IMG/VR virus record: IMGVR_UViG_2660237951_000007
Coordinates: 1 to 4,612 of that record
Source: a virus
Lineage: Duplodnaviria; Heunggongvirae; Uroviricota; Caudoviricetes
Length of the DNA stretch: 4,612 nucleotides
Direction: 5' to 3' (one strand)
The notes beneath the pieces are model-generated. The model did not search any database. It was not told the DNA's origin and was given only the letters and a program-made list of their open reading frames with translations. Each line of letters starts with the position of its first letter. The first letter of the stretch is position 1. The translations under genes were made by a program, and so were the position numbers. Positions 1-4,612 of this stretch are shown here, one piece after another.

Positions 1-182
1 GATTTGAGTTTGGGGTTTAGCGTGACAAGTTTGCGAGGGTGATCGGAGTAATCAGTGAACAGTTCGCCACCAACAATAACATCATAACCGTGGTTACGTG
101 TCGGTTGTCGCCCGTTATCCGTTCCTTCTGACCATGCCACCATATCCAGGAAAGCTTTACGCTGGGAATTTAGTGCCTGCAT
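1..182 (-). CDS. R: Endolysin, phage lambda R-type lytic transglycosylase; N-terminal 60 codons only, 3' end lies beyond the window start
   Basis: Absent from the supplied ORF track because it is truncated. Minus-strand translation from ATG at 182-180 reads MQALNSQRKAFLDMVAWSEGTDNGRQPTRNHGYDVIVGGELFTDYSDHPRKLVTLNPKLK, which matches the N-terminus of lambda R nearly residue for residue as I recall it, including the WSEGTD segment with the catalytic Glu. AGGAG (plus coords 189-193) sits 6 nt upstream of the ATG, inside the last codons of the preceding holin gene. Confidence 0.9.
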   Translation of the reverse strand, partial: MQALNSQRKAFLDMVAWSEGTDNGRQPTRNHGYDVIVGGELFTDYSDHPRKLVTLNPKLK

Positions 183-185
183 AAA

Positions 186-521
186 TTACTCCTTCGAGCT
201 ACCAAATTTGTTACCGATTACTCGCATTGCAGCCCCACGAATAGCATCGACACCGATCAGCCCCACGCCACCACCAATGGCAACAGAAAGCGATTTAGGC
301 CATCCGACATATTCAAGAGCGGATGCAAAGGTCAGCGTCAGAGCGCCACATAGCAAAATCTCGAGCGTTTTTCGCTTCCAGCCACCACCACCGCCAAAAT
401 AGGCGATGCGCAAACCAGCCATAACGATCGACATAATCACTGCACCCAGCGGTGTGTCTCCACGCCACCAGCTCTGAAACAACTCCAGCCAGTCCGGCCA
501 GGTATTTGGGTTATGAGGCAT
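186..521 (-). CDS. Class I holin, lambda S-like (about 111 aa from ATG at 521-519; the track ORF 186..617 is over-extended at its 5' end)
   Basis: Three hydrophobic segments (LGAVIMSIVMAGLRIAYF, TLEILLCGALTLTFASALEYVGW, SLSVAIGGGVGLIGVDAI) and a charged C-terminal tail. The N-terminus MPHNPN...MAGLRIAYFGGGG and the C-terminus GLIGVDAIRGAAMRVIGNK parallel lambda S (MPEKHD...AMAYLRGRYNGG and GYIGTDSIGSLIKRFAAKK, from memory). The stop TAA at 188-186 lies 3 nt before the R start, the classic S-R arrangement. The longer reading to 617 would overlap the methyltransferase stop codon and an intrinsic terminator, so the internal Met33 start is preferred. Confidence 0.75.
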   Translation of the reverse strand: MPHNPNTWPDWLELFQSWWRGDTPLGAVIMSIVMAGLRIAYFGGGGGWKRKTLEILLCGALTLTFASALEYVGWPKSLSVAIGGGVGLIGVDAIRGAAMRVIGNKFGSSKE

Positions 522-562
522 TTCGTCATCTCTCACCTCGCGATATTTGCGGGTGCTGTGTT

Positions 563-590
563 GGAAATAAAAAGGCCACGCAACGTGGCC
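563..590 (-). terminator. Rho-independent terminator directly downstream of the methyltransferase gene
   Basis: On the minus strand: GGCCACG-UUG-CGUGGCC (perfect 7-bp stem, plus coords 574-590) followed by UUUUUAUUUCC (plus 563-573). It begins 8 nt after the methyltransferase stop codon at 598-600. Confidence 0.6.
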
Positions 591-597
591 ACCAGAA

Positions 598-1650
598 TTA
601 TTTCCCCACCAGTTCACTTACCTCTTTCACCGTCTGATTAAACCGCTCTGACTCAAGTTCAACACCTAACGCCCGACGCCCCAGCGCCATTGCTGCTTTT
701 ATTGTGGAACCGGATCCCATAAAGAAATCAGCAACCAGATCACCAGGTCGACTACTGGCATTGATTATTTGCCGGAGCATATCCGCCGGTTTCTCGCACG
801 GATGTTTACCCGGGTAGAACTGAACGGGCTTATGCGTCCAGACATCGGTATAAGGCACGGAGACTGATACGGAGAAATAGCGCCGGAGAGATTTAAACTC
901 ATCCAGCAATTCAGAATATTTGCGATTCAGTGAATCATAAGATGCCACCAGCTGGTGGTGTGGTTGTTCCAGTTGTTGTTCCTGAAACTTCTCTGCCGCT
1001 ATACGGGAAAACAGTGCCTGTAACTTCCGATAGTCAGCCTCATTCGGCAACTGCCACTGACTGGCACCAAACCAGTGGGAAACCATATTTTTCTTACCTG
1101 TGGCTTCGGCAATTTGTTTTGCCGTTATACCCAGTTCGGCACGAGCATCCCTGAAATACGATATCAGCGGTGCCATTATGTGCTGTTTGAGTTCCCTTTC
1201 TTTTGCCGCATAGCCGTCACTTTTGCCGCGATATGGCCCCTGGTAATGTTCAGCAAACAGAACGCGCTCTGTGGCAGGAAAATATGCGCGCAGACTTTCT
1301 TTATTACACCCATTCCAACGTCCGGACGGCTTCGCCCAGATGATATGGTTAAGCACGTTGAAACGTTCACGCATCATGATCTCAATATCAGATGCCAGGC
1401 GATGCCCACAGAACAGGTAAAGGCTTCCGGCAGGTTTCAACACCCGCCAGAACTGGGCCAGACAGTGGTCCAGCCACTTAAGGTAATCTTCGTCCCCTTT
1501 CCACTGATTGTCCCAACCGTTAGGTTTCACCTTGAAGTAAGGCGGATCCGTAACAATAAGGTCGATGGTGTTATCTGGGAGGGTTGCGAGGTATTGCATG
1601 CAGTCAGCGTTGATAAGCTCAACACTGTTTATATTTACAGTATTTTTCAT
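598..1650 (-). CDS. DNA methyltransferase, beta-class N6-adenine/N4-cytosine family (DPPY motif; YhdJ-like), apparently orphan
   Basis: 350-aa ORF. Motif IV DPPY at residues 35-38 (plus coords 1537-1548) lies near the N-terminus and the AdoMet motif I FFMGSGST at residues 309-316 near the C-terminus; this IV-then-I order defines the beta group. N- and C-terminal blocks resemble E. coli YhdJ as I recall it (DLIVTDPPYF vs DLIFADPPYN; HPCEKPADMLRQIINASSRPGDLVADFFMGSGST vs [34 protein letters not shown]). No restriction endonuclease candidate is adjacent in the window. Confidence 0.88.
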   Translation of the reverse strand: MKNTVNINSVELINADCMQYLATLPDNTIDLIVTDPPYFKVKPNGWDNQWKGDEDYLKWLDHCLAQFWRVLKPAGSLYLFCGHRLASDIEIMMRERFNVLNHIIWAKPSGRWNGCNKESLRAYFPATERVLFAEHYQGPYRGKSDGYAAKERELKQHIMAPLISYFRDARAELGITAKQIAEATGKKNMVSHWFGASQWQLPNEADYRKLQALFSRIAAEKFQEQQLEQPHHQLVASYDSLNRKYSELLDEFKSLRRYFSVSVSVPYTDVWTHKPVQFYPGKHPCEKPADMLRQIINASSRPGDLVADFFMGSGSTIKAAMALGRRALGVELESERFNQTVKEVSELVGK

Positions 1651-1742
1651 AGATCCGTAAGCGTAACTCTGATAGGCTCACTATGCTTTTGCGCTAAAGC
1701 AGTGGGCCTTGGTTAGCTTGTGACCTGAAAGCATGAGCTAAT

Positions 1743-1773
1743 GGCTGGTTGGGTGCTACAACACCCACCAGCC
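1743..1773. repeat. Imperfect inverted repeat (12-bp arms, one bulged T, 6-nt spacer) in the intergenic region between the small ORF and the methyltransferase
   Basis: Plus strand GGCTGGTTGGGTG (1743-1755) ctacaa CACCCACCAGCC (1762-1773). The arms are reverse complements except for one extra T in the left arm. No U-tract follows on either strand, so it is not a canonical terminator. Confidence 0.55.
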
Positions 1774-1800
1774 GCCCATTTCCACAGCAGAATGCCCCCT

Positions 1801-1992
1801 TCAGTGGAGGCGTTTGTAACATCCAAACTGGTAATCTGATAACCCCGCCATAACCAGCTGCGTCAGGATGAGCTGGCATTTCTCTCGGCTTAGGTGCGTA
1901 TTCTGTGCAATTTCCCCAGCTGTCGCTGGTGAAGCGCTGAGTTCGTTAAAAACCGCTTTTGCTTCTTCTGTCATATAAGGTTGATTTTGCAT
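1801..1992 (-). CDS. Small (63 aa) winged-helix/HTH-like DNA-binding protein, family uncertain (PapI/FaeA-like pattern possible)
   Basis: ATG at 1992-1990 is preceded by AAGGGG (2005-2000) with a 7-nt spacer. The segment ATAGEIAQNTHLSREKCQLILTQLVMAGL has the helix-turn-recognition-helix spacing typical of small winged-helix regulators. The gene is co-oriented with and directly upstream of the methyltransferase gene. Confidence 0.55.
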   Translation of the reverse strand: MQNQPYMTEEAKAVFNELSASPATAGEIAQNTHLSREKCQLILTQLVMAGLSDYQFGCYKRLH

Positions 1993-2070
1993 GCCTTTTC
2001 CCCTTTTTTATCGTGTGACACACAGATAACTCTGGTTCATTTTTGCATCAAGCTTTAGATACAAAAGGCA

Positions 2071-2095
2071 TAAAAAAACCCCGCCGAGGCGAGGT
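2071..2095 (-). terminator. Promoter-proximal intrinsic terminator (tR'-like) between the Q-position gene and the cargo genes
   Basis: Minus-strand RNA CCUCGC-CUCG-GCGGGG (6-bp stem with one G-U pair and a tetraloop; plus coords 2079-2094) followed by seven U residues (plus 2072-2078). It lies about 30-55 nt downstream of the candidate promoter. Confidence 0.6.
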
Positions 2096-2103
2096 TAGAT
2101 ATA

Positions 2104-2160
2104 ATTATGACAAAATATAAAATTAGCTTCAAATATGGCTCATTTTGTTGCATTTTGCAA
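2104..2160 (-). promoter_or_regulatory. Candidate sigma70 late promoter (pR'-like) with downstream -10-like elements
   Basis: Minus-strand reading: TTGCAA (2160-2155), 17-nt spacer, CATATT (2137-2132). A second overlapping candidate is TTGAAG (2132-2127), 17-nt spacer, CATAAT (2109-2104). TATATT at 2119-2114 would fall at about +7 to +12 of the first promoter. The region is AT-rich and begins about 30 bp after the stop of the Q-position gene. Confidence 0.45.
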
Positions 2161-2190
2161 GCCCATTTGAGGGAGTTAGTGAAAGTTACC

Positions 2191-2883
2191 TCACATTTCC
2201 GCCACTTTCAGTTCTTGGTACTCTTCGTACCGTGACAAAATTTCGCTTAGTGCCTGGCTATCCATTTCAGCAAACGACGCTTTGAAAGCCGCCCAGTGGC
2301 CTGAATACACTCTGAGCCAGGTGGAACGCTCAACGCTGACCATGCGCGCCAGAGCTGCACCAGCATACTCCTGATAGGTATCGTTATTACGCGAGGCAGC
2401 AACTTCTTGCGCCGCCAGCCAGACAAGCCCTACCAGTTTTTTAGTGACGCGGCCCTGTATTTTTTTGCCGCTATGCTGACGCTGAAACTGTTCCCACACG
2501 TGCTGGCACATCAATGTCTGGTACCGGAAAGTAAGGTCATACCCATAGCAGTACCGCACCCATGCCTGCAAATGCTCACCCAGACCATTGACCGAACGAC
2601 GCCATGCTGAACAAGCGAACTCCGTATCTTTAATAGGCGGCAAAGGTCGACGACGGCTCCTTGTCTCAAGAACATAAAATGGAGTGGCCAGCGTTGTTAC
2701 AACCTTTGACCCACAACCTTCCCCACCCTCCATGACGATTTCAGGATGGTGCCGGGGGTATTTATTCTTATCTGCTGGTGGATGCTCACTGAACGCCTGC
2801 AGCTGTCCTTTTGTCGATCCTGATAAATCCGCCAGCGCGCGGCGCAGTTCAATCCGCGTATATTCCAGTTCTTGTAAATTCAT
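2191..2883 (-). CDS. Putative late-gene antiterminator at the Q position (non-lambda-Q family; assignment by synteny), 230 aa from ATG at 2883-2881
   Basis: An intact ORF directly downstream of a DUF968 gene and directly upstream of a promoter+terminator and lysis genes. This matches the ydfU-then-quuQ arrangement I recall for the E. coli K-12 Qin prophage. It shows no resemblance to lambda Q (no paired CxxC zinc-finger motifs). The track extends the ORF to a TTG at 2904; the ATG at 2883 has GGAG/GAG upstream and is preferred. Confidence 0.5.
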   Translation of the reverse strand: MNLQELEYTRIELRRALADLSGSTKGQLQAFSEHPPADKNKYPRHHPEIVMEGGEGCGSKVVTTLATPFYVLETRSRRRPLPPIKDTEFACSAWRRSVNGLGEHLQAWVRYCYGYDLTFRYQTLMCQHVWEQFQRQHSGKKIQGRVTKKLVGLVWLAAQEVAASRNNDTYQEYAGAALARMVSVERSTWLRVYSGHWAAFKASFAEMDSQALSEILSRYEEYQELKVAEM

Positions 2884-2904
2884 TATGCTCAGCGCTCCAT
2901 ACAA

Positions 2905-3966
2905 TTACGCTTTTGTTATTACGCCGATCGCCAGCGCTCGATTCATAAATCGGAATAGCAGCTCCAGCTGGGTACCGTGTTTTTTCTCGAACGCTGCAAC
3001 ATCAGCATGTAATTTGTCGTGACACTCTCTGCACAGAGGGATCACGAACAAATCGTGGGCTTTAGTGGCGGTACCGCCCATGCCGTGACCAATGACATGG
3101 TGTGGATCATCCGCTGGCCGCCGGCAACCTTCACAGGGCTGGGTTTTAGCCCACCGGGTATAGTCCTCATTCACCCACCTGCGGTGTTTTGGGCGCAACA
3201 TGAATGATTCAGGGGATTCAGGATCCGCATGCAGAGCCAGAACCTGTGGCTGGTCATAGGCCACTTCCTGATTTGTTCCATGCTTTAAATGCGCAGCCGT
3301 GACCGCAGGGGTGACCTTCTTCTGCAAAATGTTTTTTGTCGGTGGCATCGGCACAATGTCACTTTCGCGATATACGGATAAAAACGGCTCATCCGGTAAG
3401 CGAAGCGCATGCTGGGCCATCCTTTCCGTGATTGCATCAGCAATGCCTGAGTAAACGGCCCACCAGCACAATTCACCGAGGGATAGTTCACGCTCGTTGT
3501 TGTAGCCAAGCGAAGACAGGATAGAACTGATCAGCCAGTTAATGAGATTACGCCGGGCCAGTTCTGCCAGCGCCGCGGTGGTTTGCTCGCGCAGCTGGTT
3601 ATCGCAATGCCAACAGAGCAACATTGATCCAGGGGGATGTCGCATCGTTACCAGCTCATGATGGTGATAATTAGTGTGCGGGTACTGGCATTCCTTCACG
3701 TTACGCTCTAGCCAGGATTCCAACCCGGACAAACCGCCTGCTGCACGGATAACTCTCTCGTCGGTGAAGAATTCCTCGAGGGACTTATCTTCTGCCAGCG
3801 GCTGCCGGGCATCAGGGACGAGCCCCGACGGAAGCCCAGCCATGCTTTTTGGCTGAGGCTCCACCAGCACACGCCCCTGTTGAAACAAAGACATCAGTTC
3901 GCTACCCGGCTTTAACAGCACAAGCCCAAGGCGCGGAACAGTCTCGGCTGTAAACAGTCCTCTCAC
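2905..3966 (-). CDS. DUF968-family prophage protein with C-terminal HNH-like Cys/His motif (YdfU-like)
   Basis: 353-aa ORF. The C-terminal CEGCRRPADDPHHVIGHG...VIPLCRECHDKLH matches a CxxC...HH...CxxCH zinc/HNH-type motif. The GTG start at 3966-3964 overlaps the TGA of the upstream gene (GTGA) and is preceded by AAGGGG (3980-3975) with an 8-nt spacer. Family recall is from memory of lambdoid nin-region proteins. Confidence 0.75.
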   Translation of the reverse strand: MRGLFTAETVPRLGLVLLKPGSELMSLFQQGRVLVEPQPKSMAGLPSGLVPDARQPLAEDKSLEEFFTDERVIRAAGGLSGLESWLERNVKECQYPHTNYHHHELVTMRHPPGSMLLCWHCDNQLREQTTAALAELARRNLINWLISSILSSLGYNNERELSLGELCWWAVYSGIADAITERMAQHALRLPDEPFLSVYRESDIVPMPPTKNILQKKVTPAVTAAHLKHGTNQEVAYDQPQVLALHADPESPESFMLRPKHRRWVNEDYTRWAKTQPCEGCRRPADDPHHVIGHGMGGTATKAHDLFVIPLCRECHDKLHADVAAFEKKHGTQLELLFRFMNRALAIGVITKA

Positions 3967-4612
3967 GCGGCATGCCCCTTAGCGATGTGTGCCGTCCACA
4001 GGCCGCCGATCCACTCGATGCCTTTGGGTGTAAAACGTGCCTGGCTAAAGGCGTAGTTTGTTTCGCTCGTAGTGCCAGTTTTCACTTCAAACCGCCCGGC
4101 AGCAATGTGCTGGTGCCGAGGTGTCAGCACTCCACTGAGCCGGTACAAAATGCCGCTCTCAATGAGGAACAAGCGGAAATCGGTCTCTTTGGCCTGCAAC
4201 AGCTTTGCCACCTGGCGGAAAGACATTGAGCCTTTGGCAGTACAATATCGATCGACAAACTCAACTTTCGGCGCGGCAGCGGCTAACTGCTGGCTGAGTT
4301 GTTCTTTCTGCTCGGCCAGATCCGCGGCGAGACGTAATGCCTCCGGCAATGTTTGCGGGACACTTACGGCCTGGCTGTTCTCCAGCTCTTGCCAGCGATC
4401 GACAACAGCGGCGGTAAATTCTGGCGACAGCCTGGCGACGATCACCAGAGAATCACGTTTGTTAAACCAATACTCCTCGTAGGTTTGCCCGTTTTGCGGG
4501 TGTGTGTAGGGGGTGTGCGCCAACGGCGCGGTTAAAATACCAGCAGATGCAAGGCGCTCAGCTGAGCGCTTCACATCACCATGTTTGCTCTGCACCAGCC
4601 TGGCAATTTCAC
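3963..4612 (-). CDS. Rha-family phage regulatory protein with C-terminal KilA-C/ANT (antirepressor-like) domain; 5' end beyond the window
   Basis: The N-terminal part (EIARLVQSKHGDVKRSAERL ... TYEEYWFNKRDSLVIVARLSPEFTAAVVDRWQELE) follows the Rha pattern. The C-terminal part (FRQVAKLLQAKETDFRLFLIESGILYR...GRFEVKTG...FTPKGIEWIGGLW) follows the KilA-C/ANT pattern. The reading frame stays open upstream of the track's GTG at 4595 to the window edge, so the true start is outside the window. Confidence 0.8.
   Translation of the reverse strand, partial: EIARLVQSKHGDVKRSAERLASAGILTAPLAHTPYTHPQNGQTYEEYWFNKRDSLVIVARLSPEFTAAVVDRWQELENSQAVSVPQTLPEALRLAADLAEQKEQLSQQLAAAAPKVEFVDRYCTAKGSMSFRQVAKLLQAKETDFRLFLIESGILYRLSGVLTPRHQHIAAGRFEVKTGTTSETNYAFSQARFTPKGIEWIGGLWTAHIAKGHAA

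Follow-up and report, generated by a model that had tools for sequence, protein, structure and literature searches.

We analysed a window of 4,612 nt, comprising positions 1–4,612 of the IMG/VR record IMGVR_UViG_2660237951_000007, and all coordinates refer to this window unless a locus is named. All of its genes are on the minus strand, and they run from the last part of the early-right region of a lambdoid prophage into the beginning of its late region. Many lambdoid phages and prophages match this DNA, among them SfV, mEp460, cdtI, Stx2 phages, Nissle 1917, and strain CX21. In gene order, the genes and their bracketing terminators are:

4595–3963, minus strand: Ant/KilAC anti-repressor, first in gene order
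3966–2905, minus strand: DUF968/HNH protein
2904–2191, minus strand: antiterminator Q
2077–2096, minus strand: intrinsic terminator after Q, hairpin AACCTCGCCTCGGCGGGGTT followed by a T-run
1992–1801, minus strand: small ORF encoding a stand-alone winged helix of 63 aa, phrog_331
1650–598, minus strand: N6_N4 DNA methyltransferase of 350 aa, with DPPY and FxGxG motifs and a recognition domain containing a helix-turn-helix (HTH)
574–590, minus strand: cassette-closing intrinsic terminator, after the stop of the methyltransferase gene and ahead of the holin start
real start near 521, minus strand: lambda-family holin, with a Pfam match beginning at residue 35 of a 143-aa frame
beginning at 182, minus strand: gene annotated as lysozyme/endolysin in the SfV and other records

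The terminator at 2096–2077 is tR′-like and divides the Q/PR′ region from the cassette that holds the small ORF and the methyltransferase gene. A terminator is annotated at the equivalent place in the SfV record, and terminators are annotated at the position matching 590–574 in the SfV, N15, and phiKO2 records. We also noted a promoter-like site (TTGAAG-17-CATAAT with an upstream TG, 2132–2104, minus strand), almost directly followed by the strong terminator at 2096–2077; the stretch 2077–2132 gave a weak, sub-threshold match to Rfam istR. The segment 2132–2077 may be a PR′/tR′ pair giving a very short StxS-type RNA (PMC7547250), or the terminator may do no more than close the Q transcript.

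Two relatives carry an extra methyltransferase gene just upstream in the same region, for DNA cytosine in CX21 (locus L004, 7020–8540) and of the MT-A70 family in strain 100416 (locus L005, 4918–5574), so these phages stack several DNA-modification genes around Q. The window itself is a recombinant, with a DNA homology breakpoint ~10 nt into the spacer that follows the small ORF, at about position 1790. The CX21 type has an identical small ORF (100%) but a methyltransferase that shares only 83% identity; in the SfV/mEp460/cdtI type the methyltransferase and leader reach 96–97% identity, and the small ORFs of SfV (L001) and mEp460 (L002) are 78% and 43% identical to that of the window, respectively.

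The small ORF and its methyltransferase neighbour

The 63-aa product, MQNQPYMTEEAKAVFNELSASPATAGEIAQNTHLSREKCQLILTQLVMAGLSDYQFGCYKRLH, is translated from an ORF with a strong Shine-Dalgarno sequence (AAAAAGGGGAAAAGGC-ATG) and matches phrog_331 (E = 2.6e-29). Its family comprises 254 clusters at 90% identity in Enterobacterales. Among 57 unique 63-codon alleles, third codon positions varied at 60 of 63 codons, first positions at 37, and second positions at 33; within helix 3, pairwise codon differences were 6556 synonymous and 1259 non-synonymous. We confirmed that the small ORF is a genuine gene under purifying selection and not a chance ORF. The abundant synonymous variation also ruled out nucleotide-level constraint, such as an embedded promoter, as the basis of the invariant CQLILTQL helix.

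An AlphaFold2 model of the protein (pLDDT 90.3) has the canonical winged-helix layout H1-b1-H2-H3-b2-b3, and topology, model confidence, and structural matches all identified a winged helix-turn-helix. The small winged-helix protein proposed in the initial annotation is therefore borne out, both as a fold and as a real gene. Foldseek with this model likewise recovered the winged-helix fold, with winged-helix dimerisation domains of SAM-dependent O-methyltransferases as the top, weak matches (E ~1e-3). A sequence search of PDB chains with the small protein returned nothing at E ≤ 10.

The family is defined by an invariant N-terminal motif (DMTE.A) and an invariant helix 3 (CQLILTQLV.AGL), in which the Q/T/Q positions never change, and its wing always has two or three basic residues. 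It falls into several allelic types, the window and mEp460 types being only 43% identical. The median pI is 5.6 (8.6 for the methyltransferase), acidic in most lineages, although the charge is mildly acidic only and not DNA-mimic-like. All 86 representatives are stand-alone and nearly all are 22–145 aa long, three long hits matching via repeats; no fusion to a methyltransferase was found among 1.84 billion representatives. N15 gp51, PY54 ORF59, and phiKO2 gp51 are probable distant members, as judged by hhalign against the family (E = 1e-5 and 5e-5); helix 3 of these N15-type members contains E residues. An 82-aa ORF upstream in Vibrio ST2-1pr was not supported as a member (hhalign E = 0.17).

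The methyltransferase is a beta-class enzyme (Pfam N6_N4_Mtase, E = 1.3e-42) with an HTH_3-like stretch at residues 167–193. It is identical to M.EcoGII at 279 of 349 residues, or 80% over the full length, with the same domain layout; the M.EcoGII sequence was machine-read from Table S1 of PMC11551740, making 80% a lower bound. The order of DPPY and FxGxG, the central helical HTH recognition domain, and the high identity place the enzyme in the M.EcoGII type, and from the 80% identity we infer a non-specific adenine methyltransferase acting in any sequence context. PMC5778455 describes M.EcoGII as a non-specific m6A enzyme of an O104:H4 prophage that is silent in the lysogen, harmful when expressed, and fully active alone, in vitro and in vivo. 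It has been put forward, and engineered, as a mapping and RNA-methylation tool (PMC5778455, PMC11551740), and the prophage location is shared with the M.EcoGII and M.EcoGI genes of O104:H4 (PMC5778455; PMC11551740). The M.EcoGII papers, in the text available, make no mention of an upstream gene or leader, and the word "upstream" occurs 0 times in the main text of PMC5778455. In the mEp460 record, the small ORF carries a remark on its similarity to a hypothetical protein from the O104:H4 strain LB226692. Unlike the small ORF, the methyltransferase gene starts without a good Shine-Dalgarno sequence.

Across 80 IMG/VR loci, a methyltransferase gene lay 3′ of the small ORF wherever downstream sequence sufficed, at a gap of ~150–159 nt in nearly all; the rest comprised contig ends, two loci bearing an insertion, and two in which the methyltransferase is truncated. 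It also followed the small ORF in 29 out of 30 species-level genomes (Enterobacter to Providencia, Proteus, Plesiomonas, and Mangrovibacter). Synteny was the same for the divergent members P0151 and P0179, and the Q and holin families around the pair varied. The linkage is near-absolute: in about 110 loci from Escherichia to Plesiomonas, a sample biased to close relatives in that the loci returned were the best-scoring ones, the two genes travel together with one decayed exception. In this exception (gut Enterobacteriaceae locus L111, 2977–3306), the leader is kept and the small ORF is altered at its N terminus, but the methyltransferase has been lost. The converse linkage is weaker, as Serratia OS31, VHML, and Aeromonas and Vibrio phages carry a member of the enzyme family but no small ORF.

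The small ORF had been placed immediately upstream of the methyltransferase gene, in one transcription unit with it. The gene order stands, although a 150-nt spacer separates the two. The single transcription unit holds only in part: our scan called no sigma-70 promoter within this spacer, but a hairpin lies at the small-ORF stop that is a full terminator in relatives. Individual loci depart from the common arrangement. In Erwinia tracheiphila (L102, 3001–3345), the small-ORF stop is lost and the frame reads through the leader to give 114 aa; in Mangrovibacter yixingensis (L120, 3001–3069), a premature stop falls at small-ORF codon 23 and the leader and methyltransferase are intact; and in two viral contigs (L031, 4190–4688; L050, 4187–4697), an insertion of ~500 nt separates the small ORF from a leader that remains flush with the methyltransferase gene.

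Family affiliation of the 63-aa protein

The initial annotation had likened the protein to the PapI/FaeA-type regulators and had suggested a module sensitive to adenine methylation. None of 63 family members matched Pfam FaeA (PF04703) at E ≤ 10, whereas the positive controls PapI and FaeA scored 2.4e-31 and 2.8e-33, respectively. Aligned with hhalign, the small-protein and FaeA/PapI profiles gave a probability of 26.8% over 31 columns at 23% identity, covering the generic HTH core only. The FaeA/PapI signatures, a YQARYYL recognition helix and an R(T/S)PLRRG wing, are absent; the small protein has REKCQLILTQLV and SDYQFGCYKRL there. The family is acidic and FaeA/PapI proteins are basic. Its setting is a prophage late region, not a GATC-paired regulatory region beside a fimbrial operon: we counted one GATC in 1651–2815 and none in 1993–2190, with no paired GATC sites. 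Profile, signature, charge, and context together refute membership in the FaeA/PapI family. What the two share is a small stand-alone winged helix, of similar length and in Enterobacteriaceae; they differ in charge, in GATC/Lrp-type architecture, and in genomic context. Overall, the initial interpretation was partly supported.

The nearest sequence family appears to be the DprA C-terminal winged helix. DprA_WH (PF17782) was matched by 61 of the 63 members (best E = 3.4e-8), and precomputed matches to it are recorded for several homologs; the window protein scored 22.3 bits, just below the gathering cut-off of 22.9. Size and topology are the same in both. DprA_WH forms the C terminus of a transformation protein and is reported to take no part in DNA binding and to recruit the helicase ComM by direct protein-protein contact, whereas the window family is stand-alone and tied to a phage methyltransferase, with no competence genes around it.

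Two further names were considered. NCBI calls such proteins "TrmB family transcriptional regulator", but the window protein scored below threshold against the TrmB HTH profile (19.9 bits, cut-off 25.6) and, at 63 aa, has no second, C-terminal sensor domain. It had no match to Zn_ribbon_Com (PF10122), its fold being a winged helix and not a zinc ribbon.

The structured leader and the repeated box

The 150-nt spacer is conserved as strongly as its flanking genes. It and the region 5′ of the small ORF contain the following elements:

2015–2051, minus strand: promoter-like element 5′ of the small ORF, TTGATG (2051–2046), 17 nt, TATCTG (2028–2023), then TGTGTCAC
2026–2035, minus strand: box 1, CCAGAGTTAT, between the −35-like and −10-like hexamers, a perfect YCAGAGTTAY
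1794–1811, minus strand: hairpin GCCUCC-ACUGAA-GGGGGC, straddling the small-ORF stop codon
1651–1800, minus strand: structured RNA leader of the methyltransferase
1779–1774/1738–1733, minus strand: leader helix P1ext
1773–1762/1755–1743, minus strand: leader helix P1
1741–1713, minus strand: alternative helix P2, competing with P1ext and PL
1725–1716/1662–1652, minus strand: long-range helix PL, covering the bases just 5′ of the methyltransferase AUG
1708–1675, minus strand: leader helices P3–P4
1663–1672, minus strand: box 2, TCAGAGTTAC, in the unpaired 3′ leader tail, with its first base at −22 from the methyltransferase AUG

When 37 leaders were aligned with MAFFT, two alternative and mutually exclusive folds were supported, both beating controls. 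In a model-guided alignment that takes in the Vibrio, Aeromonas, Serratia, and N15-like copies, 89% of cells paired, compared with 32–43% when partners were slid. Compensatory changes occurred at 26 of 38 leader pairs (12.2 ± 1.8 in shuffles, with 0 out of 500 reaching 26), and outside the model at 4 out of 4 inner pairs of PL and at 6 out of 9 pairs of P2. Counts of G.U against A.C were 38 to 3 in P1ext, 26 to 8 in P1, and 35 to 1 in PL, an excess that indicates a sense-strand RNA. The window leader has a minimum free energy of −54 kcal/mol (z = −3.5) and takes the same fold, which pairs the GAUC and the UG of the AUG.

We considered other natures for the spacer. The G.U/A.C asymmetry disfavours a DNA palindrome or an antisense RNA, although thermodynamic folding of the antisense strand was equal. 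Coding is not supported, as the peptide of a 7-codon mini-ORF (AUGGGCGGCUGGUGGGUGUUGUAG) is not conserved, being 37 aa long in strain 100416 and of differing sequence in PY54 and N15. No tRNA was found in the spacer. Rfam searches at E ≤ 1, covering the window and five divergent loci, matched no family in the leader and returned only weak, sub-threshold hits to sRNAs of terminator type (istR and isrK) outside it.

Using a covariance model, we found the leader directly 5′ of the enzyme gene in PY54, phiKO2, N15, YDC107_1, Serratia OS31, and a Providencia phage, and also in VHML, Vibrio ST2-1pr, and Aeromonas phiARM81ld (leader coordinates in relatives: L087 1218–1365, L088 1356–1500, L089 1350–1500, L092 1316–1460, L129 1361–1504, and L131 1215–1364). 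The same search found no leader in the P2-like phiO18P or in an archaeal virus. Its 5′ edge is a terminator in all lineages. The conserved structured leader is well supported and has no Rfam match. Within open-access papers, it appears to be previously undescribed, making it a candidate new cis-regulatory RNA family, and it arguably deserves more attention than the small ORF. The methyltransferase is the sole protein that always accompanies the leader, so autoregulation or SAM/SAH sensing is conceivable.

The two additions to the enzyme can be separated. Serratia OS31 and VHML have the leader without the small ORF, and in P0179-type loci the small ORF and a 60%-identical methyltransferase are 73 nt apart, with a short hairpin, a good Shine-Dalgarno sequence, no leader, and no box 2. 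The small ORF and the leader are therefore independent additions, and the leader cannot be the small protein's universal target.

In Aeromonas phiARM81ld (L087, 1362–1577) and Vibrio ST2-1pr (L131, 1331–1468), a Com zinc ribbon is encoded between the leader and the methyltransferase gene. The Aeromonas ORF scored 27.9 bits against PF10122 (cut-off 22.9), and the Vibrio ORF is unannotated in its record. Com and the winged helix occurred together in none of the loci examined, the Com-bearing sample being two loci. In both, the Com start codon abuts the 3′ end of the leader, so that Com would be gated by the leader and, acting as it does in Mu, would itself gate the enzyme, giving two layers of control.

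The promoter-like element has the consensus TTGCTG, 17 nt, TATCTG/TATTGG/TACATG, TGTGTCAC in relatives and ends 29–32 nt before the ATG. We found its core in 86 of the 89 unique upstream regions, and exactly 17 nt separate the hexamers in 83 of those 86; the element occurs whatever the Q family upstream and also in P0179 and P0189 types, but N15-like phages lack it. The hexamers are weak and went uncalled by a promoter scan, and position 6 of the −10-like one is not the usual T. We regard 2051–2015 as a putative promoter, promoter-like in its sequence.

On the coding strand of the window, YCAGAGTTAY, which forms the core of this element, occurs exactly twice, at 2035–2026 and 1672–1663. We surveyed 98 unique modules for YCAGAG, whose background frequency is 0.51 per kb: in 84 it stands at exactly −22 relative to the methyltransferase AUG, and in 63 it falls −42 to −45 from the small-ORF ATG. 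In Providencia/Proteus-type cassettes (L114, L117, L128, and L137), we observed the CAGAG box doubled at about −60 to −15 from the small-ORF ATG, within a long inverted repeat (GGTCAGAGTTAC...ATAACTGACCAGAGG), and a leader without box 2; the two-box theme is kept there, arranged differently.

In relatives, the hairpin at 1811–1794 is followed by a T8 tract and forms a full intrinsic terminator; in the window its U-tract is degenerate, and it reads as a terminator remnant. By position it is the homolog of the terminator that the N15 and phiKO2 records mark at the 5′ edge of the leader.

We also observed that the sole GATC in >1.1 kb (1652–1655) abuts the methyltransferase AUG (..CGGATCT-ATG) and that most leaders have (C/T)TGATC(T/C) there; a Dam site directly before this AUG is maybe noteworthy. 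Its conservation is explained by RNA pairing, the site being in the 3′ arm of PL.

Possible roles of the small protein

We propose that the 63-aa protein is a cassette-specific winged-helix regulator gating synthesis of a toxic methyltransferase, a reading to which we give a probability of roughly 0.4. The hyper-methylation cassette sits between Q/tR′ and the lysis genes in the order promoter-like element with box 1, small ORF, terminator, leader with box 2, methyltransferase gene, and terminator. Basal enzyme synthesis would be held low by the terminators, the lack of a Shine-Dalgarno sequence, and PL burying the initiation region, while the small protein would be translated efficiently from the same region. 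The small protein would recognise YCAGAGTTAY, as DNA or RNA, both 5′ of the small ORF and at −22 from the methyltransferase AUG, and thereby set the level or threshold of methyltransferase during Q-driven late transcription. Binding to the box, the sign of regulation, and the choice between RNA and DNA as the target are all presumed here.

We favour a regulator because the cis elements travel with it, the start of the toxic enzyme is buried, and Com occupies the same cassette elsewhere. The upstream element (86 of 89) and the shared boxes accompany the small protein, the covarying sense-strand leader covers the methyltransferase start, the basic wing residues and the invariant Q/T/Q of helix 3 are in keeping with such a role, and M.EcoGII is harmful when expressed and silent in the lysogen (PMC5778455). 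Several points stand against it: most lineages have an acidic protein (median pI 5.6); its closest family, DprA_WH, is reported to act by protein contact and outside DNA binding; Serratia OS31 and VHML have the leader and no small ORF, and P0179-type loci have the small ORF and neither leader nor box 2; and the −10-like hexamer misses its usual T. Small-ORF alleles that are only 43% identical also adjoin almost identical leaders, and the N15-like homolog lies upstream of an annotated late promoter, with no upstream element.

Two known systems resemble this arrangement. In restriction-modification systems, the controller (C) proteins, dimers of the Xre HTH type, recognise palindromic C-boxes and exert control over a restriction enzyme. 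They share with the window a small HTH protein just upstream of the timed gene and a conserved box over a promoter-like element before its own gene; the window protein differs in being a monomer-sized winged helix, with direct-repeat boxes, an orphan methyltransferase that has no nuclease beside it, and a large RNA leader. The other analogy is functional. In Mu, Com activates mom translation (PMC6483171), and in Mu-like prophages non-specific adenine methyltransferases replace mom downstream of com (PMC3299994). Mu com-mom, like the Com-like genes found with Hin1523, Nma1821, and Hia5, has a small dedicated protein beside a late, broad-spectrum DNA-modification enzyme that is toxic to the host and has its initiation region within an inhibitory mRNA structure, as it does here. 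By this analogy, the window protein might open the inhibitory helix by binding mRNA, as Com does. Com is a basic zinc ribbon and the window protein an acidic winged helix, and the Com-like ORF lies between leader and methyltransferase gene whereas the window small ORF lies upstream of the leader.

The main rival, which we consider possible but somewhat unlikely, holds that the small protein, an acidic winged helix, makes direct contact with the basic M.EcoGII-type enzyme and has no sequence-specific nucleic acid binding. It could neutralise enzyme that leaks through in the lysogen, like an antitoxin, or serve in late growth as an accessory or targeting subunit. Given the double dissociation from the leader, the methyltransferase gene is the small ORF's sole invariant neighbour. 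The DprA_WH affinity (61 of 63 members) points to a domain reported for ComM contact, and the opposite pI values (5.6 and 8.6), the acidic and hydrophobic conserved surface motifs (DMTE and CQLILTQL), the E residues in helix 3 of N15-type members, and the weak Foldseek matches to O-methyltransferase dimerisation domains all fit a protein partner. So does a well-translated small gene before a toxic, poorly translated one, as in toxin-antitoxin pairs. M.EcoGII alone is, however, fully active in vitro and in vivo (PMC5778455), and no methyltransferase fusion was found among the 1.84 billion representatives. An inhibitor on the same transcript would also stay in excess during lytic growth unless degraded or titrated, and direct binding to the enzyme leaves unexplained the conserved box common to both upstream regions.

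A fuller form of the regulator reading, which we think unlikely, is a three-layer safety device for a broadly toxic enzyme that combines an undescribed class of RNA leader with a winged helix doing Com's job, possibly on RNA. The leader, of ~150 nt and with two alternative folds, extends from Enterobacterales to Vibrio and Aeromonas phages and is absent from Rfam; the winged helix would read the box at its own promoter-like element and again in the single-stranded tail of the leader; and the leader might itself respond to the methyltransferase or to SAM/SAH.

It is quite improbable that the small protein is a counter-defence companion shielding hyper-m6A phage DNA from type IV, Mrr-like restriction, in the producer or after co-injection. 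Mrr is a methyl-adenine-dependent type IV restriction enzyme, and T4 IPI* protects glucosyl-hmC DNA from GmrSD. Such a role would explain why the gene is present only alongside the methyltransferase, and would suit a small, acidic, stand-alone, late-region protein from a winged-helix family used for protein-protein contacts; yet we found no likeness to known anti-restriction proteins in sequence or fold, the charge is too mild for a DNA mimic, and the shared cis box is left unexplained.

A PapI/FaeA-type co-regulator of a Dam/Lrp-style methylation-sensitive epigenetic switch has almost no probability left, for it shares with the window protein the generic fold and H2-turn-H3 spacing (TAGEIAQ...L.......L..AG) and nothing else, and is opposed by the profile results (no FaeA match in 63 members, hhalign probability 27%), missing signature residues, and opposite charge, by the single GATC in 1651–2815, by a partner enzyme of a type that PMC5778455 describes as non-sequence-specific, and by a late-region position after Q, where terminal lytic expression would be expected and a heritable ON/OFF state would be useless. 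The remaining probability belongs to mechanisms outside those weighed here.

The original M.EcoGII paper describes a gene that is unexpressed in the lysogen and harmful when forced (PMC5778455). The window shows the native control region of an M.EcoGII-type gene, with an obligate small winged-helix partner, a strongly covarying leader in which the start codon is buried, bracketing terminators, and a box shared by two cistrons, and the silence of M.EcoGII in lysogens becomes a directly testable question. The analysis adds a candidate new cis-regulatory RNA family and gives a functional context to phrog_331, a family that automatic annotation labels "TrmB family transcriptional regulator" across hundreds of enterobacterial genomes, with Stx phages and E. 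coli Nissle 1917 among its carriers. The Com zinc ribbon and the winged helix appear as convergent solutions on the same enzyme-leader core and, if the three-layer reading is true, the winged helix would do Com's job with an unrelated fold.
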